A stretch of DNA of 52,909 bases from Alphaproteobacteria bacterium (GCA_020632925.1 JACKER010000007.1:1-52909); one strand, 5' to 3'; shown: positions 2,760 through 28,116, counted from the stretch's first letter. Notes: a model not told the origin generated them from the sequence alone. Translations and numbers: made by a program.

Positions 2760-2776
2760 ACATTGAACCGGAAGTG
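2760..2776. repeat. attL core: 17-bp direct repeat ACATTGAACCGGAAGTG, identical to the 27029-27045 copy; encodes a duplicated ychF C-terminus (HFRFNV*)
   Basis: Exact 17-mer match on the same strand ~24.3 kb apart. The minus-strand translation here gives ...HFRFNV-stop(TGA), mimicking the ychF 3' end. Confidence 0.75.
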
Positions 2777-2852
2777 AGACGTTACGGGCTGCGAACCGAG
2801 GAAAGGACCGTGAAAGCCCTTACCCCGTCGGCGTACTTCGGTCACCGGGTCG

Positions 2853-2885
2853 GGAGGGAGGGTAGGCCGAAGATCGGCTCCCTCC
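2853..2885. terminator. two-tier GC-rich hairpin (GGAGGGAGGGTAG-GCCGA-AGA-TCGGC-TCCCTCC) just inside attL, downstream of the RHH/partner operon
   Basis: Perfect 7-8 bp outer stem plus a 5-bp inner stem. There is no obvious U-tract, so it could be a factor-independent terminator or a recombination accessory site. Confidence 0.35.
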
Positions 2886-2903
2886 GTGAGGATCCGAACT
2901 CTG

Positions 2904-2923
2904 TGTGATCCACCGTGATCCAC
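2904..2923. repeat. tandem arm-type repeats (T/C)GTGATCCAC x2, putative integrase arm-binding sites (attL side)
   Basis: The same 9-10-mer occurs twice, directly abutting, and twice again in the same orientation at 26955-26976 next to the integrase gene. Confidence 0.55.
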
Positions 2924-2965
2924 CGAGGCGCGTCGGACGAGCCTCGGATGGAGCGGCGTTCGCTG

Positions 2966-3271
2966 CTACTCGCGGGCGTCGCCGAGGAGCGCCAGCTCCT
3001 TGGCGGACAGGCGGATCTGCTTCTCGCAAGTCGCATGGCCGTCGGCGGTCTTCTTGGCGATCGTCACCTGGTACTCCCGCGACAACACCTTGCCGCTGTC
3101 GGTCTGCACCCGGCTGACCTCACGGCACTCCCAGACGAAGGCCCGGCGGCCAAAGGGGCGCGCCAGGGCGCGCTTGAGGGCCTCCCAGTTGGGGCCGGAC
3201 TCACCATGGGTCAGGACGAGACCACCGAGGTGGGTGCGGCGATTGCACGCGTAGGTGCGGCGATTGTTCAC
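2966..3271 (-). CDS. uncharacterised 101-aa protein, second gene of an RHH-led two-gene operon (putative toxin-like partner; family not recognised)
   Basis: The GTG start at 3269-3271 overlaps the upstream RHH stop as GTGA, a translational-coupling arrangement. GC3 is strong. There are three Cys and no RelE/ParE, PIN or HEPN motifs that I can see. Confidence 0.55.
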   Translation of the reverse strand: MNNRRTYACNRRTHLGGLVLTHGESGPNWEALKRALARPFGRRAFVWECREVSRVQTDSGKVLSREYQVTIAKKTADGHATCEKQIRLSAKELALLGDARE

Positions 3272-3447
3272 GACGCACCTCCGATCGACGCCTTGTGGGC
3301 GTGGACGTACCCTTCCACGGCCTGCCGAAGGACGGCACGAGCGTGCTCACCACGAAGGGCGAGAACCGCGCGGAACTGGCGGTGCAGGTCTGCGGGCAAC
3401 GGGATGGTGATGGCGACGGACGGGCCGTCGGTCTTGCTGATGTTCAT
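3268..3447 (-). CDS. ribbon-helix-helix (CopG/Arc/MetJ-like) DNA-binding protein, antitoxin-like (59 aa)
   Basis: MNISKTDGPSVAITIPLPADLHRQFRAVLALRGEHARAVLRQAVEGYVHAHKASIGGAS: a beta-strand (AITIPLP) followed by two helices, typical of RHH. It is not in the ORF track; I translated it manually. Confidence 0.65.
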   Translation of the reverse strand: MNISKTDGPSVAITIPLPADLHRQFRAVLALRGEHARAVLRQAVEGYVHAHKASIGGAS

Positions 3448-3510
3448 GTCGGACTCCGAGCACCCCGGCGAGAATGCCGAGATTGAAACGTAGTTGTGTT
3501 TCAGTGCGCT

Positions 3511-4921
3511 CTAGCAGGGTGCTGCAGAACCCCCTCGGGCCGACGCTCGCCGAGCCGCAGGACTCCGCAGTGGGGTCTCGGCGACCCGGGTGAGGCGTCC
3601 TCGGCCTCTGGTCTGGGCCCGCATCGCGGGCTCGGCGGCGGTTCGCCCGGCTCCGGACGCTACCCCGCGAGCTCCAGTCGGGCGATCCTCATCAGGTCGT
3701 AGGCGGCGGCTTGGAACGTGAACGCGGCATCCGTGCGGGCTCTCCCGCGGAATCGTGATCGTCGCATGCCTCCGACCGTCTTCCCCCACCCGAAGATCTT
3801 CTCGATGAGCATCCGGCACCGCTGGCTGGCGCTGTAGCCAGCGTGGCGTGTCGACCGGCCGTCGATGCCCGACCCGCGGCGGGTCGTGATGTTCCGGGCG
3901 ACGTGCGGGGTGACGCGGAGCCCGCGGCACTGCCGGATGAAGTCGCGCACGTCGTAGGCCTTGTCGCAGCCGACGGTCACGCGCCGGGGCATTGCGGCCG
4001 CTGCGCGCTGTCGCAGCCGCCGGAGCATGGCCAGCGCGCCCGTGCGCTCCGCGAAGCCGCTCGCGGTCTCCAGCTCGGTGTCGATGATGAGCCCGTTCCG
4101 GTTCTCCATGAGCACGTTCCCGACGTAGCAGAGCTTCGACTCCCGGCCGCGGCCCTTGCGGAGCAGCTTCGCCTCGGGGTCCGTCTTCGACTCGTGCGTG
4201 TCGTTGCTGCGCTTCGTGCCCTTGAAGTCGCCGAACCCGTTGTTGTCGTTCGAGTCGTCGTCCTTCGGCCGGAAGCTCTTCATCGAGGCCCACGCCTCGA
4301 TGAGCGTGCCGTCTACCGAGAAGTGTTCGTTGCTCGCCAGGTCCTGCGCCTTCGCATACGCGACGATGCGCTGGAGGAACTCGCGCGCGACCTCCTGGTT
4401 GAGCAGCCGGTCCCGGTTGTGCGTGAACCCGGTCGCGTCGAACGGGACCTCGATCAGGTCCATGTCGAGGAACCAGCGGAACAGCATGTTGTAGCGGAGC
4501 TGCTCGCACAGCATCCGCTCGCTGCGCACACTGAACAGCGCCATGAGGACCACGGCCTTCAGTAGTCGCTCGGGCGGGATGGACGGTCGCCCTACGTCGG
4601 CGTAGAGCGCGTCGAACAGCGGCGAGAGGTCCTTCAGGACTTCGTCGGTGACCCGCTTGACGGCCCGGATCGGGTGGCGTTCGGGGACCAAGCTCTCGAT
4701 GGACACGAGAGCCAGCATGGACGGCTGCTTCGGCTGGGATCCGCGCATAGTCCGAGCAGATCACAACCTCCGCCCCGTGTCGATCCCGTCCGCGGACCCG
4801 CTCGGGGCGAACCTCCAGCGCCCGGCGACGGGCCCGCAGTGCGTCACGCCGGCGCGCGGAGGTGCCGGACCGCGCCGCGCCAGAGCCCCGCGTGGCTCTG
4901 GGTTCTGCAGCACCCTGCTAG
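3511..4921. mobile_element. complete IS5-family insertion sequence (~1.4 kb): 18-bp perfect terminal inverted repeats CAGGGTGCTGCAGAACCC (3515-3532 and 4900-4917) flanked by CTAG on both sides
   Basis: The TIRs were identified by eye and each is immediately flanked by CTAG (3511-3514; 4918-4921). CTAG could be a 4-bp TSD, or the known CTAG/TA target of some IS5 subgroups. The element encloses one DDE transposase gene. Confidence 0.75.
3660..4748 (-). CDS. IS5-family DDE transposase (InsH-like N-terminal DUF772 + DDE_Tnp_1)
   Basis: 362 aa, more likely 352 aa from MLALVS at 4718. It shares the InsH architecture: LFRWFLDMDL..., DGTLIEAWASMKSF, CDKAYD, IEKIFGWGK. Confidence 0.85.
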   Translation of the reverse strand: MRGSQPKQPSMLALVSIESLVPERHPIRAVKRVTDEVLKDLSPLFDALYADVGRPSIPPERLLKAVVLMALFSVRSERMLCEQLRYNMLFRWFLDMDLIEVPFDATGFTHNRDRLLNQEVAREFLQRIVAYAKAQDLASNEHFSVDGTLIEAWASMKSFRPKDDDSNDNNGFGDFKGTKRSNDTHESKTDPEAKLLRKGRGRESKLCYVGNVLMENRNGLIIDTELETASGFAERTGALAMLRRLRQRAAAAMPRRVTVGCDKAYDVRDFIRQCRGLRVTPHVARNITTRRGSGIDGRSTRHAGYSASQRCRMLIEKIFGWGKTVGGMRRSRFRGRARTDAAFTFQAAAYDLMRIARLELAG

Positions 4922-5188: not shown

Positions 5189-5686
5189 ATGTCTACCGCC
5201 GACTTCCTCACCGTCGAGCACCAGGTGCTCGGCCTGTTCGACACCCTCGACCGCACCTCGGAACCCAAGGACGCCGCCGGGTACGCCTCCGAGCGCCTGG
5301 CCGTGCACTACGACCTCGACCTGCTCGGCCTGGCTCGCCGTTACCCGCCGTCAACATCCGGAACACCGGAAGGCCGGGAAGCCCTCCTGCTGGAGCATTT
5401 GGGTGCCGCAGCCGGGTTGGTGGCCCTGGAGGCCCGCGTCTCGGTTGCGGTGCTGGACGCCCTGATCGACTTGCTCACCGCCGCATTGACTGCGCAGGTC
5501 GACGACAAGGCCACCGCCGTGTGGGCCTGCAACCGCGTCATCGGTGCGACCGGGATCGGCGGCGTCGTTCACGACCCGACCGACAGCAACCCGGGCGAGG
5601 CTGCCGTCCGCCACCTACGGGCGGCCAGCGTCCTCCTCGAGCGGCAGTCGTCGATCATCAGAGGGGAGGAGGACATCCCGTTCTGA
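5189..5686 (+). CDS. hypothetical protein (165 aa)
   Basis: GGAGG RBS 6 nt upstream of the ATG and high GC3. It is preceded by a relatively AT-rich promoter-like region (5040-5140). No domain was recognised. Confidence 0.5.
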   Translation: MSTADFLTVEHQVLGLFDTLDRTSEPKDAAGYASERLAVHYDLDLLGLARRYPPSTSGTPEGREALLLEHLGAAAGLVALEARVSVAVLDALIDLLTAALTAQVDDKATAVWACNRVIGATGIGGVVHDPTDSNPGEAAVRHLRAASVLLERQSSIIRGEEDIPF

Positions 5687-5700
5687 CTGGCATGGCGGCC

Positions 5701-6063: not shown

Positions 6064-6107
6064 GTCCTCCGCCGAGGGTACGCGCCGCCCCCGTCGCCCT
6101 GAACCCG

Positions 6108-8597
6108 TCAGGTCTCGATCTCGACCTCGGCGGCAACCTCGATCTCCACAGGTGTGTAGATGTCCACGCCCACGTCGGGGGCGTGGATGCTGATCACCAA
6201 GGAGTAGCGCATCTCCTCGTCGTACCGGTTCGCCGTCAGTCGATCCTTCCACCACCCGCCGACCGGGTACACGGCGATGTGATCGCGGGCGGCGAGGTCG
6301 ATGGCAGGGCCCGTCCAAGTGTCCGAGTGGATCGAGCCCCGATCGCGGTGAGCAGCCGTCAGGAGCCAGCCCTTCTCCGAGAAGCTGGGCACACCGCCTT
6401 CCTCGTCCTGCTCGTTCTTGGACACCCGCTTGCGGAAGTCCTCGAGCGACTCGAGCGGGTTCCTCATCGCGAAGCGTAGCCCCGCCGACTGGTAACGACG
6501 CTTCGAGTTCCACCCCCGCCGCGCCGGGTTCGGCTCGACGAAGTACGAGAGGGTCACCCGAAGCTCGACCTGTTCGTTGTTCAGCGCCTCCAGCGCGTCC
6601 TTCGGCCACGGAAGCTGGAACAGGTGCCAGTCGCGGGTCTTCACGTCGGGCGCCTTGCCTGGCTTCCCGACGTTGTGAAACGGCTGGATCCGCCGCTGCG
6701 CCACCAGGGTCAGGGCGTTCGAGGCACTCGAAGCAGCCCGCTCGAGGTCGGGCACGCCCCAGCCGTACCGTCGAAGCAGGAGGTCGCGTTCCTTCGGCTT
6801 CGCTGTCGGCGACAACAGCGCCTTCATCCGGGGCGTCCACTGGGCGGAGTGCACCGTCAACGCCCGCACGGTCTCCGGCCACACGTCGTCCTGTTGTTCA
6901 CGCAGCCGTACCAGCAGGGACGCGGCGAACCGAGCCCCCAGGGCGGCGGCACCGCTCGTGTCCCCCGTGGTGTCGAGCAGGCGGTCGTTTGGCTTCCAGT
7001 GCGTGGAGAGCAGGCGAAGGGCGTCCGGAAGCTCGACGAGGCCGTCCGGAGCGAGCGTAGCGTTGCCGCCCTCGAACACCACGTCGGGCTTGTTCGGCCA
7101 GTTCGGCTTCCACGTCAGCGAGGTCGACGAGGCCGGGCTGAGCCCGCCGGGGCTGGCGATCACCTTGTGCCCGGGGAAGTCCTTGGTCTCGAACACCACC
7201 TTGTCGGTGAACGCCCCCACCGTGAGCGCATTCCACGCCTGACCCGGGTCGTGAACCTGGTGGGTGTCGTTTTCGGCGTCGTACCCCTGCCAGGCCGACT
7301 GCGGCACGTTGCCGCCGGAGATCACCATCAGCCGGGGCAGCTCGTCCCGCCGCCCTTCACAGAGCGCGTCGACCTCCGCCGACCACGACGAGGGCTTGCC
7401 CCGGTCGCGGTAGTCCTCTGCGGTCACCGTCATGCAGAACACCCGCTCACGCTCGGGGGCCTGCAGCTCCGACTTCGACACCGCCCGAAGGGTGAAGGCG
7501 CCCCACAGGCGCTCCTTCGTCCTCGGCTGCCCCCGTGGGGGCAACAGCACCACGGATTCGAGGCCGTAGCTGGGGGACACGGGGCCCGTTCCCGCGAGGG
7601 GTGTGGTCAGGTCTCCCCAGGCGGCCAGGCCCGCCATGAGCGTGCCGTGGCCCTTGTGGTCGGTGCGACCCCAGGCGTCGTCCACGGTGTGCAGGTCGTC
7701 AGGGGCGAGGAACGGCTCGAGCAACGGGTGGCCCCGGTTCACACCGGTGTCGAGCAGGCACAGGGCGGGGGTGTGGGCCTCCACGCGCTGGGTGCGCGAG
7801 GCCAGGTCCTTCACCCAGTCGCCTTGCTCTCTTGGGGTGAGGCCCATGAAGAACGAGGCGAGTTCCTTCGCCCGTCGCAGCTCGGCGACGCAGTCCAGCA
7901 ACTCCACGGACGAGGTGAGCTGCTCCAACGAGCCGAACGCGAGCACCACGATCCGGTCGAGGAACTCGATGGAGTCGTCGTCGACGTCGAGGTGCCGAGC
8001 CGCAGCGAGGGCGCGAAAGTCCGACATCGCGGTCGGTGTCTTCCGCAGCCACACCTCCCACCAGAGAGTCTCGGTTGCGACGGGGAGATCCCCGTCGTCT
8101 GTCCACAACGTCTCGACAGCAGCCCTTCGGATCGAGGCGACCGGGGCGACCCACGCCTCGTTCTGCGGGCGACCTGACCTCGCGTGAAAGTCGGTTCGAT
8201 ACTGCTCGATCAGTCGCTCCAGAGCCGAGAGCTGTCCGTCGGGCACGAGCACCGCCGCCAGGGTGATCGGGCCCCGTTCACGGACGGAGACGACCTCGAT
8301 CTGCGGCCGCTTTCTGTCCATCTTGTCGAGGGAGAGTGCAAAGCCCGGCTCGCTCTCGAACTCGAGCAGCATCCCTCGGTCGAGTGGTACACCCACCGCC
8401 GCCCGCTCCCCATCGACCCGAGCTTCGGCGGCACGCACCGCAGCCAGGTCGGCCTTCAGCTTTGCGCCGTGGGAGCCAGGGTTCCTCGGGGGCAGCGGAG
8501 GCGGTGGGGCGACGACCGGCTTCGGGTACGTGTACCGGCGCGTGTCCGTTCGACCGTCGGGCACCCGGATGTGCGGAAGTCCCTCGCGCTTCGCCAC
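6108..8597 (-). CDS. S8-family (subtilisin-like) serine peptidase, 829 aa, with an N-terminal ~270-aa domain of unknown function; IetS-like
   Basis: Catalytic triad motifs are in order: LLDTGVNRGH (Asp), HGTLMAGLAA (His), GTSGAAALGARFAASL (Ser). GTG start with an AGGAGGGG RBS, 16 nt after the ATPase stop. Confidence 0.85.
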   Translation of the reverse strand: MAKREGLPHIRVPDGRTDTRRYTYPKPVVAPPPPLPPRNPGSHGAKLKADLAAVRAAEARVDGERAAVGVPLDRGMLLEFESEPGFALSLDKMDRKRPQIEVVSVRERGPITLAAVLVPDGQLSALERLIEQYRTDFHARSGRPQNEAWVAPVASIRRAAVETLWTDDGDLPVATETLWWEVWLRKTPTAMSDFRALAAARHLDVDDDSIEFLDRIVVLAFGSLEQLTSSVELLDCVAELRRAKELASFFMGLTPREQGDWVKDLASRTQRVEAHTPALCLLDTGVNRGHPLLEPFLAPDDLHTVDDAWGRTDHKGHGTLMAGLAAWGDLTTPLAGTGPVSPSYGLESVVLLPPRGQPRTKERLWGAFTLRAVSKSELQAPERERVFCMTVTAEDYRDRGKPSSWSAEVDALCEGRRDELPRLMVISGGNVPQSAWQGYDAENDTHQVHDPGQAWNALTVGAFTDKVVFETKDFPGHKVIASPGGLSPASSTSLTWKPNWPNKPDVVFEGGNATLAPDGLVELPDALRLLSTHWKPNDRLLDTTGDTSGAAALGARFAASLLVRLREQQDDVWPETVRALTVHSAQWTPRMKALLSPTAKPKERDLLLRRYGWGVPDLERAASSASNALTLVAQRRIQPFHNVGKPGKAPDVKTRDWHLFQLPWPKDALEALNNEQVELRVTLSYFVEPNPARRGWNSKRRYQSAGLRFAMRNPLESLEDFRKRVSKNEQDEEGGVPSFSEKGWLLTAAHRDRGSIHSDTWTGPAIDLAARDHIAVYPVGGWWKDRLTANRYDEEMRYSLVISIHAPDVGVDIYTPVEIEVAAEVEIET

Positions 8598-8612
8598 TGC
8601 CCCTCCTGCAGA

Positions 8613-9593
8613 TTAGAGACGGCGACCCCGGCGCCGATCGGACAGGGCAGCCACCATTCTCTCGGTCGAGATCGTGACGGTGTCGTCCAGCACGGCGTCC
8701 TTGGCCGCCGTGTCGCAGGCAGCGGCCACGTCCGCGTAGGACAGGCCGGTGGCGGCCTCCTTGACCTGGTTCCAGTCGAGGCCGCCGCTGTCGAAGGGCG
8801 CGAGGCGGTTCCGAACCGTCTCCTCAGCCTGCTCGGGCGTGGGGATCTGGTAGGAGACGACCACGTCGAAGCGGCGGAACAGCGCAGAGTCGAGGGCCTG
8901 GGGGTGGTTCGTGGCGGCCACGATCAGGCTGCGCGAGTCGTCCTGTTCGAGGAACTGAAGGAACGAGTTCAGCACTCGGCGGATCTCGCCCACGTCGTTG
9001 CCGGTGGCCCTCTCGGCCCCGATCGCGTCGAACTCGTCGAACAGGTAGACCCCTCGGGTCTCCCGGAGGGAGTCGAACACGAGCCGCAGCTTGGCGGCGG
9101 TCTCCCCCATGAACCGCGTGATCAGGCTGTGCAGGACGATCACGTACAGCGGGAGCCCCAACTCCCCCGCAAGCGCAGCAGCGGTCATCGTCTTGCCGGA
9201 ACCGGGCGGGCCGACGAGCAGGAGCTTCCGCGCGGGCACCAGGCCGTGCGCCAGGAGCTTCTCCGAGGCCCGCTGCTCCCGGAGCACCCGCTCGAGCTGG
9301 TCACGAAGTCCCGCGTCGAGGACCATGTCGCTCAGGTGGGTGCGGGGCAACGAGACGGCCAACAGGCCCGCCAACTCCCCTTTCGGGGTCGTGACCGCCA
9401 CGGGCCGGCTGCCGGGTCGGCTCTGGGCCTTCTTGCGGGCTTCCTCGACCAGGGCCTTGATATCGTCTGCCGCGCGACCGTGACCCTGGCGTGCGGAGTG
9501 CGCAGCGACCTGGAGGGCGAGGGCGAGAAACCGCTCGTCGTCCCGGTCGATGTGGCTCCGGATCAGGGCCTTGATGTGGTCGTTGGTCGCCAT
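8613..9593 (-). CDS. AAA+ ATPase (326 aa), IetA-like partner of the S8 peptidase
   Basis: Walker A LLVGPPGSGKTMTA, Walker B VYLFDEFDAIG, and sensor/arginine finger region ATNHPQALDSALFRRFD. Confidence 0.85.
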   Translation of the reverse strand: MATNDHIKALIRSHIDRDDERFLALALQVAAHSARQGHGRAADDIKALVEEARKKAQSRPGSRPVAVTTPKGELAGLLAVSLPRTHLSDMVLDAGLRDQLERVLREQRASEKLLAHGLVPARKLLLVGPPGSGKTMTAAALAGELGLPLYVIVLHSLITRFMGETAAKLRLVFDSLRETRGVYLFDEFDAIGAERATGNDVGEIRRVLNSFLQFLEQDDSRSLIVAATNHPQALDSALFRRFDVVVSYQIPTPEQAEETVRNRLAPFDSGGLDWNQVKEAATGLSYADVAAACDTAAKDAVLDDTVTISTERMVAALSDRRRGRRL

Positions 9594-9877: not shown

Positions 9878-12634
9878 ATGACGAAGCTCACCCTTGGACA
9901 GCTCGAATCCTTCCTTCTCGGCGCGTGCGACCTCCTGCGCGAGGGCGGTTCGGATTCCTCCGATTTCAAGTACTACATCTTCGGAATGTTGTTCCTGAAG
10001 CGCGTGAACGACCAGTTCGAGGTGATGCGGGAGGAAAAGCGGAAGGGCCTGATCGACGACGGCCTCTCCGAGGCCGAGGCCGACGAGTCCCTCGACGACC
10101 GGGACCTGTACTCGGGCGGCTTCTACGTTCCCATGGCTGGGCGATGGGAATGGAGGGAGAAGGGCGAGGACGGCGTGGAGCGCTTCAAGGGGCTCGCCCA
10201 CGCGAAGGAGGGCGAGAACGTCGCCGCCTTGCTCGACGCGGCCCTCGACGCAATCGAGAAGGAGAACGCCAAGGTCACGCAGGGCGCCCTCCGGACCATC
10301 CGGTTCGTGACCCAGGCGCAGTCCAGGCAGCTCGAAGACAAAGTGCTGGTGGACCTGATCCACCACTTCAACGAGGTCCGCCTCCGCAACGAGGACTTCG
10401 AGTTCCCCGACCTGATGGGCGCGGCCTACGAGTACCTGCTCAAGTACTTCGCCGATGACGCCGGGAAGAAGGGCGGCGAGTTCTTTACGCCGCCATGGGT
10501 GGTGCGGCTGCTCGTCCGCATCCTGGACCCGAAGCCCGGCATGGCCGTCTACGACCCCACGGCGGGCTCGGGTGGGATGCTCATCCAGTCCTACCAGCAC
10601 GTCCAGCGGCAGACCCGAAGGGGCGAGCGCGTCAACCTCACGTTGGCCGGGCAGGAGCTCGTCGGGGGGACGTGGGCCACCTGCAAGATCAACATGATCC
10701 TCCACGGCGTCCTCGATGCCGACGTGCAGCACGGCGACACCATCCTCTCTCCGCTCCACGTCGCGGACAACCAGCTCAAGCGCTACGACCGCGTGATCGC
10801 GAATCCACCCTTCGCGCAGAACTACAGCCCCGGGAAGGAAGGGCTCAAGCTGCGCAAGGAGCGGTTCCCGGTCCTGATGCCGCAGACCGGGAAGAAGGCC
10901 GACCTGATGTTCGTCCAGCACATGGTCGCGAGCCTGAAGCGCAAGGCCAGCGGGGACGAGGTCGACGGTCGGCTTGCGGTGGTCATGCCGCACGGCGTCC
11001 TGTTTCGTGGAGGCAAGGAGAAGGAGGCCCGGGAGCACTTCCTCGCCGAGGGCTTGCTCGAGGCCGTCATCGGGCTGCCGCCGAACCTGTTCTATGGAAC
11101 GGGAATTCCGGCGTGTATCCTGGTCATGTCCCACGATGGGGCGGCCCGCCGCAAGGGGGATGACGGCAACGTCCTGTTCGTGAACGCGGATCGGGAGTAC
11201 CGCGAAGGAAAGGCCCAGAACTTCCTCCGGCCCGAGGACATCGAGAAGATCGTCCACGTCTGGTCCCACAAGGTCGAGGAGCCCGGCTACTCACGACTCG
11301 TGCCCGTCTCCGAGCTCCGGGACGCCGAGTTCAACCTCAACATCCGTCGGTTCGTCGACAACGCCCCACCACCCGAGCCGCACGACGTTCGGGCCCACCT
11401 CCACGGCGGCATCCCCGTGGTGGAGATCGACGCCCTGAACCGGTGGCTCGCGCACTACGAAGGCATGCGGGAGCGGCTGTTCGTCGTCTCCGGCGACACC
11501 TCCTATGGGAAGGTGGTCGACGGGCTGCCGCCGGGAGGCCTCGTCGAGCTGATCGCGTCGTCGCCAGGCCTCCGAGGCTGTCACGACCGTCTGCTCGCCA
11601 GCTTCGACGCCTGGTGGAAGGACGCCAGCCAACGGGTCGAAGCCCTCCCGAAGACCCACGACGTGTTCGCGTTGGAGGCGGAGCTCCTCAGGACGCTCCC
11701 GAAGGCGCTCGCTTCCCACACGCTGCTCACGGGCCATCAGGTGCGCGGCGCCTTGGCTCGGTTCTTCGTGGAGCAGGAGCCGGTGCTCAAGACCCTGGCC
11801 GCCAGCGGCTGGGTGGCAACCCTGATCCCCGCCGAAGAGATCCTGAAGTCGCAGTTCTCCGAGCTCGTGCGGGAAGCCGAGGAGCGAGGAGCGAGGATCG
11901 CCGAGCTCCAAGGCCTGTTCGCAGCCGCCAAGGAGCGGGACGCCGAGGAGGGCGAAGGAGACGCCGAGGAGGACGAAGGGGGCGTGCTGTCGCCGAAGCA
12001 GGCGAAGCGGCTTCGGGACGAGCTGAAGGAGTCGAAGGGCGAGCTCGCCTCCGTCGTGAAGGATGTCAAGGCCCGAATCACCGACCTGTTCACCCTCGGG
12101 AAGGGTGCGGGACTTGTCGACACGAAGGCCAAGAAGGGCGACTTCACTCAGGGTCTGAGCGCCGGAGACCCGGACTTCTCGCGCGCCCTGTCGATCGTGG
12201 ACAGCGTGGCGGGCGACCCTCGGGCCCAGGTCAGGGTCGCCGAGATCCGGGACTTCGTGAGCCGGGGCGAGTCGCTGCTCGAACAGGTCGCGGAGCTCGA
12301 CGAGGCCCTCGCAACGCACAAGGGGCTCGAGGCCGAGCTCAAGCGGCTCCGCGCCGAGGTCCGTGAGGTCGAGCGCAAGCAGGACAAGGTCGTGGCGGCG
12401 GCCCGCGACAAGATCGCCCCGGTGGAGGTGAGACGCATCGTGCTGGACCTGTTGCACCGGGAGCTGCGGCAGGTGTTCGAGGGCTACCTTCGGTACGAGC
12501 AGCGAACCTTCACCGCAGAGGTGATGTCGCTGACCGCCAAGTACGCCACTCCCCTCGGCGTGCTCGAGACGAACCGGAGTCGCAGGTTGTCGACTCTGAA
12601 CGACCTCCTGTTCCGCATCGGATACCACGCATGA
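9878..12634 (+). CDS. hsdM: type I restriction-modification system DNA methyltransferase subunit HsdM (918 aa, unusually long, with a C-terminal ~350-aa coiled-coil/charged extension)
   Basis: N-terminal HsdM_N (MTKLTLGQLESFLLGACDLLREG), SAM motif DPTAGSGGML, catalytic NPPF motif (VIANPPFAQNY). The C-terminus is Glu/Lys-rich and predicted coiled coil. Confidence 0.9.
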   Translation: MTKLTLGQLESFLLGACDLLREGGSDSSDFKYYIFGMLFLKRVNDQFEVMREEKRKGLIDDGLSEAEADESLDDRDLYSGGFYVPMAGRWEWREKGEDGVERFKGLAHAKEGENVAALLDAALDAIEKENAKVTQGALRTIRFVTQAQSRQLEDKVLVDLIHHFNEVRLRNEDFEFPDLMGAAYEYLLKYFADDAGKKGGEFFTPPWVVRLLVRILDPKPGMAVYDPTAGSGGMLIQSYQHVQRQTRRGERVNLTLAGQELVGGTWATCKINMILHGVLDADVQHGDTILSPLHVADNQLKRYDRVIANPPFAQNYSPGKEGLKLRKERFPVLMPQTGKKADLMFVQHMVASLKRKASGDEVDGRLAVVMPHGVLFRGGKEKEAREHFLAEGLLEAVIGLPPNLFYGTGIPACILVMSHDGAARRKGDDGNVLFVNADREYREGKAQNFLRPEDIEKIVHVWSHKVEEPGYSRLVPVSELRDAEFNLNIRRFVDNAPPPEPHDVRAHLHGGIPVVEIDALNRWLAHYEGMRERLFVVSGDTSYGKVVDGLPPGGLVELIASSPGLRGCHDRLLASFDAWWKDASQRVEALPKTHDVFALEAELLRTLPKALASHTLLTGHQVRGALARFFVEQEPVLKTLAASGWVATLIPAEEILKSQFSELVREAEERGARIAELQGLFAAAKERDAEEGEGDAEEDEGGVLSPKQAKRLRDELKESKGELASVVKDVKARITDLFTLGKGAGLVDTKAKKGDFTQGLSAGDPDFSRALSIVDSVAGDPRAQVRVAEIRDFVSRGESLLEQVAELDEALATHKGLEAELKRLRAEVREVERKQDKVVAAARDKIAPVEVRRIVLDLLHRELRQVFEGYLRYEQRTFTAEVMSLTAKYATPLGVLETNRSRRLSTLNDLLFRIGYHA

Positions 12635-20616: not shown

Positions 20617-20680
20617 CGTCCCTCAACGAAAGCGACCCCGGCCGCCTGGCAGCACCGGGGTCGCCTCGAAGGACATCGTC

Positions 20681-23404
20681 ATGCAGCCCGTTGATCTTAC
20701 CCGCATTTCCGTCCCGATTCACCCCCGTCTCTGGCACGAGGCGCTCGAGAACCATCGACAGACGCTCATCACCCCCGAGGACCAGGCCGCCTTCGAGCAG
20801 CACCGGATCCACCTCTGGCCGCACCTCATGCAGGCCGACGGCCGCCTGCACCCCACTTGGGATCGGTCGGCCTGGACGGGCCGCATTCACGCCCGGGGCC
20901 CGGCCGTCCAGCAGATCCCCAAGGCGCTCCGCGCGGGCATCGCCGTGCCCGGGCGGCTCATCCTCACCGCTGACATCCGGGGCTCACACCTCCGCATCCT
21001 CGCCCACCACGCCAACGACCCGCAGCTCGTAGCTGACCTCCAGGCCGGGGACGTGTACACGTTCGCGGTGGAGACGCTGCAGGAGATGGGCGTCACCGAC
21101 GACCGCACGGCCACCCGCAAGGTCGCGAAGCAGGTGGTCAACGCCACCCTCAACGGCGGCGGGGTGACGGCTGCCACCGATGCCCTGGTGCGCCTCGAGG
21201 GCGGCAAGTCCGTCGATGCGGAGGCCTTCCTCGGGCGGATCCGCTCCCGGTGGAAGGTCGCGTGGTCGTACCTCGACGGCCTGGTGGAGACGGCGCGTTC
21301 GAACGGGTGGCAGCTCGTGACGCCCGAGGGCGTCACCCTGGACATCCCCACCGAGGCCCGCGATCGTGTGCACGTCCCGGCAGGGTGGTTGCAGGCGACG
21401 GAAGCCCAGGCGCTCCTTCGACTCGTCGCGGACAGCCACCGGGTCGAGGGCAAGGGGTCGCCGATCAAGCTCATCGGCCTGATGCACGACGGCGCCGTCT
21501 GGGAGGTGATGCCGGAGGCAGCCGAGAACGCGGTGATCGCGCTCCGGAAGGCCCTCGGCAAGTACCTGTTCCCACAGGGCTCGCCTCTGGCCGAGGGCTG
21601 CGCCGAGGTGCAGGTGGGCCCGTCGTGGGGACAGCAGGACGGGTCGCTCTCGCCGCCGGTGGGAAGCCCGCGCACTCGAGTGGGGTGGGCTGGTCTCGGG
21701 GTCACAAAGGTGAAGGAGGTGGTCGCTGATCCCGAGCCGAACGCCGCCGTGCAGGAGGTGATCGCCGACCCCGAAGCCCGGTTTGCTGTCGAGGTCGCTC
21801 GCATCGACACGGAGGCCGACTTCGGGCTCGCCCTCGCGATGCTGTCGGCGAGCCGGAACGGGCGTCCGGCCGCTGCCGTCATCAAGGCCGCCGTCCGCCG
21901 GGTGAAGGGCGAGATCACGCCCTACGTCGAGCATGTCGCCAACCAGGCCCGGGCTGGAGCCCGGTTCGAGCGGGCCGACCACGTCGAGCTGGCCCTCGAA
22001 CTGCTCCGCGAGATCGGTGCGGTCGACGGCGAGGGGAACCGCACCGGTGGGGTCGTGTCCGATCGCGGCTCGATCTGGACGGCGGAGTCCGCCGCCGGGC
22101 TCTGGACGCAGCTCCCCGATGCCGACCTACGGGTGCGGGTGCAGGGGTACGCGGGTTCCACGGTCGGCCCGAAGGGGGTGCCGCTCCGGCTGGGTCACCA
22201 CGACACCAAGGCCGTGCTGCTCGCCGCCGCCGACCGTCTGGAGGCTCCCGGCTTCTTCGACGTGACGGTTCCTGCTGCTGCGTTCCGCAACGGGCTGCTG
22301 TTCGCTGACGGGCTGTTCCGGCCCCACGAACCCACTGACCGCGTGCTGGCCGACCGGGTGATGCCGGTCGCCTATCAGCCCGGCGCGAAGTGCCCTCGCT
22401 GGCTCCGGTTTCTCGGGGAGATTTACGAGGGCGAGCCTGACGTTCGAGAGCGCATCCAGCTTCTGCAGATGTTCCTCGGCGCCGTCCTGCTCGGGGTCGC
22501 GACCCGGTTCCAGCGTGCGCTGGTGCTCGTCGGCGAGGGGTCAAACGGCAAGTCTGTCACCTTGAAGACGATCGAGGGCCTGTTGAACGCGGCCTCGGTG
22601 GTGAGCATCCCGCCGCAGCAGTTCACCTCGGGTCGGGGCGAGTACTACGCGGCGCAACTCGCCACCGCTGTGATCAACGTCGTGACCGAGATGCCCGAGC
22701 GCGACCTGCTCGAGTCCGAGATCGTCAAGGCCGCCATCGCCGGGGACATCATGACGGGACGGCACCCCTACGGACGGCCCTTCCAGTTCTCTCCGGCGGC
22801 GGGCTGGCTCATCGCCACCAACCGGCTTCCCGCAGTACGGGACACGAGCCACGGCTTCTGGCGGCGGCTGATGGTGCTCGACCACAAGCGGATCTTCGGG
22901 GCGGACGCCGACCCGGACCTCACGGTGAAGCTGCAGGAGGAGTTGCCCGGCATCGCGGTCTGGGCGGTGGAGGGCGGCATCGAGTTGATGCGGCGTGGGC
23001 GGTACCCCGACCTCGCGTCCTCCCAGGCCGCCGTCGCGCGGTGGAAGTCCGACGCGGACCCGGTCTCCCGGTTCGTCGAAGATCACTTCGTCGTCGACCC
23101 CGAGGCCGAGATGCGCGCGATGCACTTCTACGGCCTGTACCGGGAGTGGTGCCGGAACACCGGTTTCCAGGCGCTCAACATCAAGAACTTCGGTGAGCGG
23201 GTGAAGCCGTTCATCCCAGCGCACCGCAAGAGCAGCGGCGTCGTGTACCGCTGCCGTCTGGCTCACGACTGGCGGCTTCCGTCCTACGTCGAACGCGCGG
23301 GAGATGATCACCGCCTGTCCCCGTTCGAGGATGCCCAGCACAAGGCGTCGATCGCGTCGATGGAGGCGCTCTTGAACGAGATCAACGGCGACTGCGAAGC
23401 CTGA
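20681..23404 (+). CDS. replication protein: family-A (PolA-like) DNA polymerase core fused to a C-terminal P4/D5-type SF3 helicase (907 aa)
   Basis: Pol A motif A (LTADIRGSHLRILAHH vs DYSQIELRILAH), motif B (TRKVAKQVVNATLNGGG vs RRxAKxxNFGxxYG), motif C (LMHDGAVWE vs VHDELVFE). SF3 Walker A (LVGEGSNGKSV) and a D5_N-like region. AAGGA RBS 8 nt upstream of the ATG at 20681; the track ORF begins earlier, at 20498, in an Arg/Pro-rich overlap. Confidence 0.75.
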   Translation: MQPVDLTRISVPIHPRLWHEALENHRQTLITPEDQAAFEQHRIHLWPHLMQADGRLHPTWDRSAWTGRIHARGPAVQQIPKALRAGIAVPGRLILTADIRGSHLRILAHHANDPQLVADLQAGDVYTFAVETLQEMGVTDDRTATRKVAKQVVNATLNGGGVTAATDALVRLEGGKSVDAEAFLGRIRSRWKVAWSYLDGLVETARSNGWQLVTPEGVTLDIPTEARDRVHVPAGWLQATEAQALLRLVADSHRVEGKGSPIKLIGLMHDGAVWEVMPEAAENAVIALRKALGKYLFPQGSPLAEGCAEVQVGPSWGQQDGSLSPPVGSPRTRVGWAGLGVTKVKEVVADPEPNAAVQEVIADPEARFAVEVARIDTEADFGLALAMLSASRNGRPAAAVIKAAVRRVKGEITPYVEHVANQARAGARFERADHVELALELLREIGAVDGEGNRTGGVVSDRGSIWTAESAAGLWTQLPDADLRVRVQGYAGSTVGPKGVPLRLGHHDTKAVLLAAADRLEAPGFFDVTVPAAAFRNGLLFADGLFRPHEPTDRVLADRVMPVAYQPGAKCPRWLRFLGEIYEGEPDVRERIQLLQMFLGAVLLGVATRFQRALVLVGEGSNGKSVTLKTIEGLLNAASVVSIPPQQFTSGRGEYYAAQLATAVINVVTEMPERDLLESEIVKAAIAGDIMTGRHPYGRPFQFSPAAGWLIATNRLPAVRDTSHGFWRRLMVLDHKRIFGADADPDLTVKLQEELPGIAVWAVEGGIELMRRGRYPDLASSQAAVARWKSDADPVSRFVEDHFVVDPEAEMRAMHFYGLYREWCRNTGFQALNIKNFGERVKPFIPAHRKSSGVVYRCRLAHDWRLPSYVERAGDDHRLSPFEDAQHKASIASMEALLNEINGDCEA

Positions 23405-23867: not shown

Positions 23868-24713
23868 TCACGCCGGGCCCTCGGGCTCAAGAACCATGAA
23901 GTGGCGTACCATGTGCTGGTCGATTCGCTTCGCGAGGTCGCGCAGGAACGCGTTTCCATCCATCGCGACTGACAAGTCGACCTCCTGAACGTTGCCATGC
24001 GCAACGTCGTTGCGCAGGTCTCGGAGCCGATCGAACTCCTTGCGCTCATCTTCGGTGAGGTCGAACATGAAGGCGTCACGAAGCAGGTCTGGGATCCCGG
24101 ATGCCCTCAACTCGCCGAGACGAGTCATCAACGCGCTGATCCCGAACGAGGCGATAAGATCGCTTGGAAACCTGAAATTGCGCAGAAGGAGATCGCGTTG
24201 AAGCCCGGCGTAGCGCTGCTCGTACCCAGCCTTGCGGCGTTCCATGAGCCGCTTTCTGGCGCGCTCTACCTCTGGTGAGTTGCTGGCCAACGACTCATAG
24301 TTGCGCGCTCGGATGCTGCCCGCCCAGTCTCCATGGAAGGCACAGACCTCCTGGCCCACGTCCTTCACGTACGCCTCAAAGTGGGAGAAGCTCGACAGAA
24401 GTACGAATCGACCTAGGGTCTTCTTGTAGGCCGACTTGAACGCCCGCAGCTTGTCGTGGCTCTGAACGACCGTGAAGTGATCGGAGTCGGGGAGCTTCGG
24501 GGCCGCTCTAGCCTCGACTGCCTTCATATATGCGTTGAGGGCTGGCACGGCATGGCACGTCAACACCGCGAAGTTGATCGTGTCCTGGGCGTTGCGGCGC
24601 AACGTGACGTAGGCGTTGGAGTGGGCCAGCATGATGTCCTTGACCGCAGGCGCGGACGCGGTAGAACTGCATCGTAGCGTCTGGTGTAGGGTCGCACACC
24701 CCCCTTCCGACAT
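23868..24713 (-). CDS. HEPN-motif protein (candidate Abi/toxin-like RNase; ~255-281 aa) in a lower-GC patch
   Basis: C-terminal LRDLRNDVAHGN contains the R-x4-H HEPN signature (RNDVAH). Local GC (~58%) is below the surroundings. The start is ambiguous (24713, or ATG at 24632). Confidence 0.5.
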   Translation of the reverse strand: MSEGGCATLHQTLRCSSTASAPAVKDIMLAHSNAYVTLRRNAQDTINFAVLTCHAVPALNAYMKAVEARAAPKLPDSDHFTVVQSHDKLRAFKSAYKKTLGRFVLLSSFSHFEAYVKDVGQEVCAFHGDWAGSIRARNYESLASNSPEVERARKRLMERRKAGYEQRYAGLQRDLLLRNFRFPSDLIASFGISALMTRLGELRASGIPDLLRDAFMFDLTEDERKEFDRLRDLRNDVAHGNVQEVDLSVAMDGNAFLRDLAKRIDQHMVRHFMVLEPEGPA

Positions 24714-24773
24714 CGCCGGATCTAGCCTCCGGCGATGTCGAAAGGGGGAGGCCCCAGTTCAACTCTGGGGGCG

Positions 24774-25391
24774 CTATCCATCTGCCAAGTGACCCGCCTC
24801 TCTGAGACGCCGCCGGAGAGTCGTGCGGGAAACCCCGAGCGCGGTCGCGATGGCCTTGACCCCGTACCCCTGCTGGAGCATCGCGACGGCGGGCCGGAGG
24901 TCGACCTCTACCTTGGGCCTGCCGCAGTGGACGCCGTTCGAGCGGGCTCGGTCACGGCCCGCCTGCGTCCTGAGCTTGATGAGATCCCGCTCGTAGGAGG
25001 AAAAGCAGGCGAGCACCTGGGTAAGCAGGCGCCCGGTCACGGTCGTGGTGTCGATTCCCGGGTCGTTCACGGACGCGAAGCCCACCCCGGCGCTCGTGAA
25101 CCCGTCGAGCAGGTTCAGCAGCCCCGACAGCGTGCGGCCCAACCGGTCGAGCTTGTACACGAGCACCACGTCGACCTTGCGAGCGTCGATGTCGGCGAGC
25201 ATACGGTCCAGGGCCGGGCGCGAGGTCTTCACGCCGGAGATGCCCTCGTCCACGTACTCACCGACGACGATCAGGCCCCTGCGATCTGCTTCCGCTCGGA
25301 GCACCTCGACCTGGACGTCGGTGGACTGGTCGGCGGTGCTCACCCGGGCGTAGAGGGCGGCGCGCATCTCGCTCGACTTTTCGGTGGCCAT
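24774..25391 (-). CDS. small serine recombinase (resolvase/invertase family) with C-terminal HTH
   Basis: ALYARVSTADQS (catalytic Ser), the conserved LDRLGR motif, and a C-terminal HTH (GYGVKAIATALGVSRTTLRRRL). Confidence 0.85.
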   Translation of the reverse strand: MATEKSSEMRAALYARVSTADQSTDVQVEVLRAEADRRGLIVVGEYVDEGISGVKTSRPALDRMLADIDARKVDVVLVYKLDRLGRTLSGLLNLLDGFTSAGVGFASVNDPGIDTTTVTGRLLTQVLACFSSYERDLIKLRTQAGRDRARSNGVHCGRPKVEVDLRPAVAMLQQGYGVKAIATALGVSRTTLRRRLREAGHLADG

Positions 25392-25602
25392 CGAGTTCCT
25401 CGGCGAGGGCCGTGAATTCCGTCCAGAACCCTCTTCCGAGTTACGCGCGGAAGCGCTCGATCTGAACCTGCGACCAGCACTGCCCCGGTCTCGAAAAACC
25501 GTCGATCTACCGTTGTTGCCGTCCCTCGCCTGGCCACAGGGGCGGATCGATTTTGCGTCGATTTTTACGCTTCGAATCTGGAAAGGGTTTGAAACCAGTT
25601 CT

Positions 25603-26898
25603 CTACTTCACCAGCCGTAGCCCCGAGCTCGGCAGTGCCTCGTCGGGCGGCGCCCCCATCCAGTTCACGGCGGGCAACGTGCGGATCGCCTCCTCGAGGT
25701 CGTTCTCGGGCGGCCCGACGTAGTGCTGCTCACGGACGCCACCTGCGTGTCCGACCAGCCAGTCGATGAGGTGCCGCTCGACACGGGCCCGCGTGAGGGC
25801 CGCCTGCAGGAACGCCCGGTAGACGTGGTTGGGCTGGTTCTTCTCCCGATTCGGCGGGCGGAACACCCCGGGCCGGACTTCACTGGCTGCGATGCACTCC
25901 TGCCACGCCTCGGAGACCCACCGGGTCGGGTTCCGGTAGCTCGGGAGCGGCTTCGTCGGGTCCTTTCGGCCGGGGAACAGCGGCCCGGCCTCTGCGGCGT
26001 GCAACCACTGCCCCAGGTCGTTCATGAGCCCCGGGTGAATCGGGATGCCGCGCTGAAGCGCGTGCTCCTGCTTCGTCTTGCCGTGGCGGACGATGAACCA
26101 GCCGTTGTCGAGGTCGAGGTCTTCGCGGTGGAGCATCGCGACCTGAAGCAGCCGCAGCCCGGTGTACCGGGCGATGATCGCCATCCGGTGGGCGTACGGG
26201 TCGCGGTGATGTCGAGATCCCCGGTGCTTCTGCACGAGACGGCGGAGCACCGCGTCCACCTCGGTGGTGTGCGCGGGCATGCTGGGGGCGGCCCAGGACA
26301 CCGTGCGCGGCAGCACGAGGGTGGAGTCTCGCGGTGGCTCGGGGCAGGACGGCCACTTCTTGATGTCCCAGGCCCACTCCCACATGGCGTGAACGGCGGC
26401 GGCGGCCTGGTAGGTCGTGGACTCCGCGTTCGTGAGGTGAAGCTGGGAGTTGGCCTCCACGAAGGCGTCGAGACCGAGTGCGGCCAGCGGGACGGGTGCG
26501 CTGTCAGGGAGACCCCGGGCAAGGCGAAGGGCGCGGAGCCACCGCCCGACTCCGTAGTGGCGGGCGTCGATGGTGGCCGAACGGAGCTTGCGGCTTCCTG
26601 AGGCCCACTTCTGCCAGGCATCGAGCACCTCGTCGATCGCGACCTCCTTCGAGGGCGCGGGCGGGGGCGGCAGGCTCGGATCGTGAGCGGGCACCAGGAA
26701 GCCCTTCTTCCGCAAGTCCTTGTTGAGCCGCAAGCTGAACTCGAGGGCCTCGTCGTTCGTCGCGAACGACCGCGACCGCTGAACCTCCCCCTTCCCGAAC
26801 TCGGCCCCTTGCCGGTCCTCACGCCACCGCACCAGCCACTGCTTCGCCCGGTTCCCCCGGAACGTAATCGAGACGCCATCAAGTCGAAGTCCGCTCAC
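25603..26898 (-). CDS. tyrosine-type site-specific integrase
   Basis: Catalytic residues in the C-terminal domain (HRMAIIARYTGLRLLQV ... HVYRAFLQAAL...LVGHAGGVREQHY: R, H-x-x-R, Y). The gene abuts attR and the arm-type repeats. Confidence 0.85.
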   Translation of the reverse strand: MSGLRLDGVSITFRGNRAKQWLVRWREDRQGAEFGKGEVQRSRSFATNDEALEFSLRLNKDLRKKGFLVPAHDPSLPPPPAPSKEVAIDEVLDAWQKWASGSRKLRSATIDARHYGVGRWLRALRLARGLPDSAPVPLAALGLDAFVEANSQLHLTNAESTTYQAAAAVHAMWEWAWDIKKWPSCPEPPRDSTLVLPRTVSWAAPSMPAHTTEVDAVLRRLVQKHRGSRHHRDPYAHRMAIIARYTGLRLLQVAMLHREDLDLDNGWFIVRHGKTKQEHALQRGIPIHPGLMNDLGQWLHAAEAGPLFPGRKDPTKPLPSYRNPTRWVSEAWQECIAASEVRPGVFRPPNREKNQPNHVYRAFLQAALTRARVERHLIDWLVGHAGGVREQHYVGPPENDLEEAIRTLPAVNWMGAPPDEALPSSGLRLVK

Positions 26899-26954
26899 CG
26901 TGACCTCCAGGTCTACCGGCTGGCTACGCGGAACGACTCACTGCTTGACCCCCC

Positions 26955-26976
26955 TGTGATCCACTTTTGTGATCCA
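26955..26976. repeat. arm-type repeats TGTGATCCAC / TGTGATCCA (attR side), same orientation as the 2904-2923 copies
   Basis: Two copies separated by 3 nt, located between the integrase start (26898) and the attR core. Confidence 0.55.
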
Positions 26977-27024
26977 GAGGGAACGGCTCTCGAAGATCAA
27001 GTCGTAATGCTGGTTTACGACGGG

Positions 27025-28116
27025 CTACACATTGAACCGGAAGTGCATGACGTCGCCGTCCTGCACCACGTACTCCTTGCCCTCGATGCGGAGCTTCCCG
27101 GCCGAGCGCATGGCCGCCTCGCTCTTGAGCTCGAGCAGGTCGCGGATGGCGTACACCTCGGCCTTGATGAACCCGCGCTCGAAGTCCGTGTGGATCACGC
27201 CGGCCGCCTGCGGCGCCTTCGCGCCCAGCGGGATCGTCCACGCGCGGATCTCCTTGGGGCCGGCGGTGAAGTACGTCTGCAGCCCGAGCAGGCGGTACGT
27301 CTCGCGGGCGAGCGTGGCCAGGCCGGGCTCCTCGAGCCCGAGGTCCGCCAGGAAGCCCGCGCGGTCCTCCTCGTCGAGCTCCGCGATCTCGGACTCCACC
27401 TTCGCGCTGATCAGCACGACGCCGGCCTTCTCCTCCGTCGCCCGCGCGCGGACCCGGTCCACCAGCGCGTTCCCGTGCAGGCCCGCCTCGTCCACGTTGC
27501 ACACGTAGAGGACGGGCTTGGCGGTGATCATCTGCGCCGCCATCACGCTCGCGAGCTCGTCGTCGGTCCAGTCGCCGGCGAGCGCGGGCTTGCCCTCGTT
27601 GAACAGGGCGCACAGCTTGTCCGCGACGTTCGCGTGCAGCAACGCCTCCTTGTCGCCGCCCTTGCTCTGCTTGCGGTACTTGTCGGCGCGCTTCTCGGCC
27701 GACTGCATGTCCGCCAGGATCAGCTCGAGCTGGATGATCTCGATGTCCCGGATCGGGTCGATCGAGTTCTCGACGTGCGTCACGTCGCCGTCCTCGAAGC
27801 AGCGCACGACGTGCAGGATCGCGTCGACCGAGCGGATGTGCCCCAGGAACTGGTTGCCCAGACCCTCGCCCTTGGACGCGCCGCGGACGAGGCCCGCGAT
27901 GTCCACGATCTCCACCGACGCCGGGATGATCTTCTCGCTCGCGATCACGCCGCGGATCTGCTCGAGCCGCGCGTCCGGCACCGGCACCACGCCGACGTTC
28001 GGCTCGATCGTGCAGAACGGGTAGTTCGCGGCCTCCGCGCCCGCCGCCGTCAACGCGTTGAACAGCGTGCTCTTCCCAACGTTCGGCAGCCCCACGATGC
28101 CCGCCTGCAGCGCCAT
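27025..28116 (-). CDS. ychF: ribosome-binding ATPase YchF (Obg-like GTPase family)
   Basis: [23 protein letters not shown] (G1/P-loop), a TGS-like C-terminus ending ...[10 protein letters not shown] as in E. coli YchF. Confidence 0.95.
27029..27045. repeat. attR core: 17-bp direct repeat ACATTGAACCGGAAGTG overlapping the last codons of ychF
   Basis: Identical to 2760-2776. Here the sequence is the genuine ychF 3' end (..HFRFNV, TAG stop at 27025-27027). Confidence 0.75.

Follow-up and report, generated by a model that had tools for sequence, protein, structure and literature searches.

A 52,909-nt stretch of metagenomic DNA (GCA_020632925.1, JACKER010000007.1:1-52909; its whole length is called the window below) raises the question of how a long block of DNA rich in defense genes came to lie directly against the 3′ end of ychF. 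A first-pass annotation, made from the sequence alone, had interpreted this block as an integrative island inserted into the end of the gene. Our analysis supports that interpretation: with a probability of about 0.9, we read the 24.27 kb between two 17-bp repeats as an integrative island that was site-specifically integrated into the ychF end by its own tyrosine integrase.

The end of ychF is duplicated at the island boundaries

The 17-mer ACATTGAACCGGAAGTG occurs exactly twice in the 52.9-kb window, even with up to three mismatches allowed, at the two positions that the first-pass annotation had given (the attL and attR cores in Table 1). About 0.01-0.03 matches to a 17-mer are expected by chance, and two copies were found in 0 of 100 shuffled sequences. 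The right copy sits in the final codons of ychF, which read CAC TTC CGG TTC AAT GTG TAG, and the left copy together with its outer flank reads CAC TTC CGG TTC AAT GTC TGA, which also encodes HFRFNV-stop. Outside the 17 bp the two sites diverge, and we found no wider similarity between them.

The target gene itself stays intact. ychF is full length and closes with GTG TAG at the proximal end of the island, and an orphan end closing with GTC TGA lies at the distal end, in agreement with the earlier proposal that the end of ychF was regenerated upon integration. We presume that HFRFNV and TGA on the attL side represent the original ychF end. Since the window holds no tRNA genes and no Rfam matches, the insertion target is not a tRNA or tmRNA gene.

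A predicted lambda-type integrase and paired arm-type repeats

As first proposed, a tyrosine integrase abuts attR. Its gene starts 130 nt inside the right core, and its full set of catalytic residues (listed in Table 1) is invariant across a 31-member alignment of the integrase family. A profile of this family matches XerC/XerD and the Tn1549 integrase in the PDB. The family is small, with 377 representatives among 1.84 billion proteins, and it becomes visible through a full HMMER search; word-indexed protein searches with the integrase returned 1 and 3 matches. One relative is 93% identical, and the next nearest reaches 38% identity. Among 50,697 phage records the integrase has no match, and among plasmid records it has one weak match.

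In an AlphaFold model of the integrase (pLDDT 84.7), three strands (9-14, 20-29, and 37-45) form an N-terminal sheet that is accompanied by a helix (48-65); the model also shows a catalytic domain and a helical domain for core binding. Among known folds, the model comes closest to Brujita Int, full-length lambda Int (~400 aligned columns), and Tn1549 Int, and by its predicted fold the protein is a lambda-type tyrosine integrase. The NCBI gene call for the integrase is 409 aa long, versus a 431-aa open reading frame (ORF) that is backed by relatives; the longer ORF includes the N-terminal strands, which are kept across the family.

Just inside each boundary lies a tandem pair of GTGATCCAC repeats, at 2905-2913/2915-2923 and 26956-26964/26969-26977, in line with the first-pass annotation. 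All of these repeats share one orientation, the second copy at the right end (26969-26977) has one mismatch, and the pairs are restricted to the two ends of the island. We infer that the N-terminal sheet-helix domain of the integrase binds the paired GTGATCCAC repeats as arm sites.

Related integrases recur beside ychF

Integrases that share 30-38% identity with that of the window lie 100-160 nt 3′ of ychF, on its strand, in L004 (a chromosome of 9.4 Mb), L005/L006 (a metagenome-assembled genome (MAG) of Myxococcota and a Logan contig), L008, L009, L012, and L013. A family integrase thus adjoins ychF in six distinct genome or metagenome contexts beyond the window. One search for related loci was seeded with integrase members sharing the sequence ARPDHAFRA. 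More distant members (L007, L010, L011, L014, L015, and L089) do not adjoin ychF, and no ychF mimic lies upstream of the integrase in L089, a viral contig.

The stop codon of ychF differs between occupied and other ends. TAG ends ychF in every integrase-occupied locus, and TGA ends both the distal orphan copies (in the window and in L002, described below) and the ychF gene of L001, in which no insertion is seen. This pattern fits a stop codon supplied by the element.

The geometry of the repeats is also conserved. Downstream of ychF and before the integrase gene, the best tandem repeat starts 49-56 nt past the stop codon in 7/7 occupied loci, and the spacing of these proximal repeats is 11 (13 in the window). 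Their sequences vary by locus: TGGATCACA, GGAACCA, GGTAAC, TGCCCCACA, TCACCCCACA, CTACACA, and GGACACAG. A fixed position combined with a sequence that varies with the integrase is as expected of arm-type binding sites.

Integrase-less insertions and a related element

A degenerate motif for the ychF end, TTYMGNTTYAAYGTNTRR, is present twice in exactly three places, namely the window, L093, and L002, and in each case the pair brackets foreign genes. L093, a Logan contig assembled from a different sample (SRR21979522, 1-4910), has 4.7 kb inserted at the 3′ end of ychF, with no integrase; here the end of ychF is followed by a gene for a 281-aa protein, IetA-IetS, and a 14-bp repeat, TTCCGGTTCAACGT, that stands in an FRFNV-stop context. 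The IetA-IetS DNA of L093 is 89% identical to window positions 6082-9594, and IetAS is a discrete cassette. Some 118 nt from the distal core, L093 contains CCCCACAtctaCCCCACA (CCCCACA twice), the motif of the integrase-proximal repeats of L008 and L009.

L002 (JGI 3300063079, 11075-14656) carries a 3.5-kb integrase-less insertion after ychF, with six genes that have no Pfam matches. Its ychF-end repeats are imperfect, with exact identity limited to TTCCGGTT, and GCTCAAC repeats are found in both arms, ~50 nt past the stop codon and ~120 nt before the distal core. L002 was also considered as an unoccupied site, and was ruled out as such when the motif search revealed the 3.5-kb insertion. In the window, L093, and L002, the distal arm pairs lie 118-128 nt from the core, and the eight bases TTCCGGTT form the block common to all three repeat pairs. 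The strand-exchange overlap would be expected to fall within TTCCGGTT.

L003, a JGI contig at 89% DNA identity, shares the integrase, the resolvase, the Xis-like gene, and the replicase with the window and has kept both proximal arm repeats. It has no HEPN gene: window positions 23872-24788 form a clean indel, and the resolvase and Xis-like genes are adjacent in L003. This pattern of sharing indicates that the integrase, resolvase, Xis-like, and replicase genes form a backbone, and that the HEPN gene is cargo.

These comparisons bear on a reading that is compatible with integration of the island by its own integrase, namely that the 24 kb is a composite assembled by accretion or cassette exchange among elements that use the ychF site. 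The IetAS cassette, which another ychF island (L093) carries at 89% identity, speaks for such a history, as do the HEPN indel relative to L003 and the left flank at 1631-2759, which is absent beside the AraC gene in L092 and whose genes have low GC content at third codon positions (GC3). However, the window contains two core copies only, with no internal att remnant at up to three mismatches, and the arm repeats are confined to the two ends of the island. We hold a composite origin to be possible, if short of probable.

Gene content of the island

The view in the first-pass annotation that defense genes dominate the cargo stood up, with the AAA+/S8 pair now recognized as IetAS and the type I restriction-modification (R-M) system found to be complete. 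That annotation had missed an IS5-family insertion sequence (IS), a serine resolvase, an Xis-like gene, and a PolA-like/P4-type primase-helicase (Table 1).

Table 1. Features of the island and its target gene, in window coordinates.
Feature	Coordinates	Strand	Remarks
attL core, ychF-distal repeat copy	2760..2776	.	With 2756-2759, minus strand reads HFRFNV + TGA
Distal arm-type repeat pair, GTGATCCAC(C) x2	2905..2923	.	Spacing 10; 128 nt inside attL core
Two-gene pair: 59-aa RHH-like protein (3268-3447), then 101-aa protein (2966-3271)	2966..3447	-	Translations
IS5-family IS, transposase 3660-4748	3511..4921	-	Perfect 22-bp terminal inverted repeats, starting CTAG
165-aa protein	5189..5686	+	No family matches; exact protein on record
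IetAS pair: IetS S8 peptidase (6108-8597), IetA AAA+ ATPase (8613-9593)	6108..9593	-	PADLOC
Type I R-M: hsdM 9878-12634, hsdS 12631-13914, hsdR 13814-17341; YgjP-like metallopeptidase 17334-18062	9878..18062	+	
649-aa protein, single N-terminal PLD-like HKD-type motif (HSK...GSHN)	18063..20012	-	Motif read in translation
Replication protein, 968 aa, PolA-like + P4/D5-family primase C-terminal/SF3 helicase	20498..23404	+	Logan gene call starts 20681
Xis-like HTH_17 (MerR/excisionase-type) protein, 77 aa	23382..23615	-	Conserved in L003
HEPN (RiboL-PSP) protein	23868..24713	-	Absent from L003
Small serine recombinase, resolvase/invertase type, 205 aa	24774..25391	-	
Tyrosine integrase, 431 aa	25603..26898	-	Catalytic R249-K274-H358-R361-H384-Y393; lambda-Int-like predicted fold
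Integrase-proximal arm-type pair, GTGATCCAC / GTGATCCAG	26956..26977	.	Spacing 13; 51 nt from attR core; conserved in L003
attR core, 17-bp copy ending ychF	27029..27045	.	27025-27028 (G + TAG, minus strand) element-supplied
ychF, target gene, 363 aa, intact	27025..28116	-	Pfam MMR_HSR1 + YchF-GTPase_C

PADLOC identifies the adjacent IetA and IetS genes with E-values of 1.8e-67 and 1.7e-27, and finds hsdM, hsdS, and hsdR together. For the S8 peptidase, the NCBI gene call is 639 aa, versus an 829-aa ORF backed by relatives. The 649-aa PLD-like protein is a weakly supported candidate nuclease, matching PLDc_2 at 16.9 bits (below the cut-off) and PADLOC ZacB at E = 4e-5. The RHH-like and 101-aa genes are both called by NCBI and Logan and have no Pfam, PHROG, or NCBIfam matches; they possibly encode a regulator or a toxin-antitoxin pair. 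The IS5-family IS is a secondary insertion within the island, and removing it in silico regained no convincing interrupted gene. Transposases near-identical to this copy are found elsewhere in the same MAG (MCB9697639.1).

The replication protein combines a family-A DNA-polymerase-like domain (residues ~108-380) with a primase C-terminal/SF3 helicase region (~590-910). In an alignment to Taq polymerase, the polymerase-like domain retains the motif A Asp and the motif C His-Asp, and the best PDB sequence match of the helicase part is a 797-aa chain annotated as 'DNA primase' (7ola). The family-A polymerase-like domain seems to replace the usual primase domain in this protein; it is the sole polymerase-like domain in the island, whose ORFs contain no family B polymerase domain. 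The HTH_17 protein matches the PHROG family 'excisionase and transcriptional regulator', making it a candidate Xis.

The lower-GC patches that the first-pass annotation had pointed out at hsdS and the HEPN gene are real: GC content drops to 0.62 around hsdS (13-14 kb) and to 0.63 around the HEPN gene (24-25 kb), versus ~0.67-0.70 in the rest of the island. GC3 is 0.79-0.92 in island genes, versus 0.94-0.97 in ychF, a glutamine synthetase (GS)-like gene, and other chromosomal genes.

Pfam and PHROG scans of the island ORFs detected no type IV secretion system, relaxase, or FtsK-like Tra protein, which places the island outside the integrative and conjugative elements (ICEs) and their actinomycete counterparts (AICEs). 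In the same ORFs we found no PHROG match to capsid, terminase, size-redirection, or packaging proteins, with small uncharacterized ORFs remaining. This last result bears on whether the island is a helper-dependent phage satellite of the P4-like or phage-inducible chromosomal island (PICI)-like type, which would integrate in the same manner and spread by hijacking the particles of a helper phage. An integrase, an Xis, and a P4-family primase C-terminal/SF3 helicase make up the usual satellite core, the match of the helicase part to a 'DNA primase' chain agrees with this, and Rousset et al. are said to have described satellites in 2022 as hotspots for defense genes, which we count on the same side. 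Against a satellite stand the missing capsid, terminase, size-redirection, and packaging matches, a length of 24 kb that exceeds the typical satellite size, and the lack of any match to the integrase in 50,697 phage records. Moreover, two IMG/VR scans, one with the replicase and one with the integrase family motif, did not find the element, nor any relative of the replicase; the viral contigs yielded one distant integrase (L089). Overall, we judge a satellite to be unlikely.

The unoccupied site and excision

Several observations weigh against an island that was placed here, and can still be moved, by its own integrase. As a single sequence, the integrase falls below the Pfam cut-off (23.5 versus 27.1 bits), and it has no curated NCBIfam family and no PDB sequence match. 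No conjugation, relaxase, or capsid genes were found when all island ORFs were scanned against Pfam and PHROG. In L004, L005, L008, L009, L012, and L013, a distal repeat was not reached within 10 kb, because the islands exceed that length or their contigs stop earlier. Among the relatives reached, we found no clean empty site with both flanks of the window, and the empty attB predicted by the first-pass annotation, with the AraC side joined directly to ychF, did not appear in L001 or L092. In L001 (GCA_020430605.1), the closest relative, ychF is 98.4% identical in DNA sequence, has no integrase beside it, and ends CGC TTC AAC GTG TGA, but the DNA past its stop codon is unrelated to the left flank of the window; this ychF is directly followed by a convergent PLD-DEAD-helicase-DUF3427 gene (1006-4870 region). 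L092, which was found via its AraC gene (87% DNA identity) and tried as an empty site, loses homology at window position 1630, and no ychF lies near AraC in it. When metagenomes were scanned with the left arm repeat, GTGATCCACNGTGATCCAC, all 71 loci returned were unrelated to the window, and no attP or circular junction was found. Finally, the Logan contig L091 crosses attL unbroken.

A separate feature of L001 concerns the next gene, which encodes a 155-aa protein: 305 nt downstream of its last 65 nt lies a second copy of them, 85% identical to the first (4501-4565 and 4806-4870). The duplication could mark a further scar of insertion or excision.

The behavior of assemblies at the two junctions is informative in the other direction as well. 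Logan assemblies are built on 31-mers (PMC12424806). L090 is 100% identical to window positions 16116-27058 and ends with 13 nt of ychF plus the 17-nt core, 30 nt in total (k-1), so that its end at window position 27058 lies 30 nt before the first island-specific base. L091 serves as a control: it ends 30 nt into the IS (window position 3540), as expected of a repeat at k = 31. The stop of L090 at k-1 nt from the island implies that another molecule in SRR12358676 shares the core and ychF and then continues differently. The unbroken passage of L091 through attL implies in turn that the assembly shows no attB with exactly this left flank, and that the other molecule is not simply the attB of this strain at assembly-visible depth. 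The end of L090 at a graph branch is thus suggestive of a second molecule at the site, and is not proof of one.

The same data can be set against the idea that the island is a fixed, immobile remnant, with repeats that record a past integration in what is now ordinary chromosomal DNA. The IS5 element within the island, the passage of L091 through attL without a graph branch, and the integrase-less derivatives L093 and L002, which show island decay at the same site, would all fit such a remnant. However, intact ORFs remain for the integrase, the Xis-like protein, the resolvase, and the replicase, the 17-bp repeats match perfectly, neither arm pair is broken, and L090 ends at a graph branch exactly on the core boundary; we find an immobile remnant improbable, to about the same degree as a satellite. 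A last alternative would have the 17-bp repeat arise by chance or by local duplication of the end of ychF, with no connection to the integrase. Its only support is the short length of the repeat, and it is effectively refuted by the ~0.01 chance matches expected, by a ychF-end motif that is doubled in exactly three loci and brackets foreign genes in each, by the recurrence of the integrase adjacency in six other contexts, and by the end of similarity at the core, beyond which a duplication would need it to extend.

A model for integration and excision

In the explanation that we favor, a lambda-type integrase encoded at the right end of the island would catalyze recombination between the attP of the island and the last codons of ychF. 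The attP, which we reconstruct at ~240 bp, would mimic the ychF 3′ end, and after crossover the island would provide the final bases of the gene and a TAG stop codon, so that YchF stays intact. The original ychF end (GTC TGA) would be left orphaned at the far junction. The central and catalytic domains of the integrase would contact the core, and its N-terminal domain would presumably sit on the GTGATCCAC pairs, 51 nt inside the proximal core and 128 nt inside the distal core.

Excision would be directed by the Xis-like HTH_17 protein. On the excised circle, the PolA-like/P4-type primase-helicase may then drive replication, and the small serine resolvase may keep the circle monomeric. The remainder of the island would be exchangeable cargo, comprising IetAS, the type I R-M system, the PLD-like and HEPN proteins, and the RHH pair, with the IS5 element a later arrival. 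That the island can excise at present, and the route by which it would pass from cell to cell, we infer.

Relation to known integrative elements

Lambda Int is a heterobivalent integrase with an N-terminal arm-binding domain; its ~240-bp attP has arm sites flanking the core, and an Xis-type factor controls directionality. The window shares with this system the arm repeats flanking the core, a reconstructed attP of ~240 bp, a candidate Xis gene, and an integrase whose predicted fold matches full-length lambda Int, and by analogy the integrase would bind its arms. Unlike lambda, the island has no structural genes and is not a phage, and the sequence of its integrase is very divergent. e14 and phage 21 integrate into icd and replace that gene's 3′ end with an element-borne copy; the window island likewise swaps the 3′ end of a protein-coding gene for its own copy.

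With P4-like and PICI satellites, the island has in common an integrase, a P4-family primase-helicase, and defense cargo. It differs in being larger, in lacking capsid-redirection and packaging genes, and in having a PolA-like domain rather than a primase N-terminal domain. Cis-mobilizable elements (CIMEs) are integrase-less elements derived from streptococcal ICEs. L093 and L002 resemble them in that they are integrase-less, are bounded by att-like repeats, and retain arm-type repeats, and they might hypothetically be mobilized in trans; the window island differs from CIMEs in carrying its own integrase.

The first-pass annotation knew of no description of a ychF-targeting island like this one, but the gene is already a published attB (PMC7192596, PMC11551731). 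In the TIGER/Islander survey (Mageeney et al, 2020; PMC7192596), ychF accounts for 26 elements and ranks within the top 95 attB sites (Supp. Table 8), and two of its elements, Cur1.9.ychF (28 bp, ...gagttccggtttaatgtgta) and Gpo3.14.ychF, cross over in the last ychF codons and preserve the gene, as in the window. The Gordonia element Gpo3.14.ychF differs in using a serine integrase, and Cur1.9.ychF is in the same tree file. Two others, Ajs1.6.ychF and Asa5.4.ychF, are in a tree file dominated by tRNA targets, which is probably the tyrosine-integrase tree. The survey describes neither a Myxococcota example nor an arm-site architecture (PMC7192596).

ychF is also named as an integration site of pipolins (PMC11551731). 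Pipolins, too, are self-replicating integrative elements flanked by repeats, in which a DNA polymerase gene and a reservoir of defense systems accompany an integrase and a small serine resolvase (PMC11551731). The window differs in having a PolA-like and P4/D5-type helicase protein and no primer-independent PolB (piPolB). Moreover, the pipolins that integrate at ychF use large serine recombinases and belong to Actinomycetota, whereas the window has a tyrosine integrase (PMC11551731). A pneumococcal prophage site upstream of ychF is a different case (PMC6375853). What our analysis adds is modest in scope, and consists of an integrase clade, a conserved attachment-site geometry, and integrase-less derivatives that share IetAS.

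Host and genomic surroundings

The YchF protein of the window is 100% identical to MCB9683442.1, encoded on a 1.13-Mb contig of a MAG labeled 'Alphaproteobacteria bacterium'. An actinobacterial host, considered in view of the GC content, was set aside on the YchF matches. Most named relatives by YchF, AraC, and the integrase family are labeled Myxococcota, Myxococcales, or Deltaproteobacteria, and the label of the source MAG is probably wrong.

To the right of ychF, the window holds ordinary chromosomal genes. Overall GC content steps up near 30 kb, from ~0.66-0.69 (1-30000) to 0.73-0.79 (30000-52909); ychF and the GS-like gene have a GC3 of 0.96-0.97 despite lying in the lower-GC half of the window. 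The genes of the left flank look less native, with a GC3 of 0.90 for AraC and 0.84 for a gene encoding a 109-aa protein, and the stretch at 1631-2759 is missing beside AraC in L092. An older variable hotspot may lie downstream of ychF.

Implications

A wider proposal, which we put forward as speculative and would not yet bet on, is that in Myxococcota-like genomes the integrases form an undescribed lambda-type clade that is dedicated to the 3′ end of ychF and keeps a fixed attP geometry, in which arm pairs lie ~50 nt inside the proximal core and ~120 nt inside the distal core. According to this proposal, integrase-less elements such as L093 and L002 would be mobilized in trans and shuttle IetAS-type cassettes, and full-size elements would replicate after excision by means of an unusual P4-type replicase whose primase domain is replaced by a family-A polymerase domain.

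With ychF already a catalogued attB, the general understanding of such islands is unchanged. The window provides, for an uncultured lineage resembling Myxococcota, a mobile defense island that is precisely delimited and comes with its attachment sites and candidate arm sites. It also yields a testable rule for finding more of them, namely to search for a second ychF-end motif downstream of ychF. The cargo of different occupants of a single site can be compared, and this comparison shows an exchange of defense cassettes, such as IetAS, between elements.

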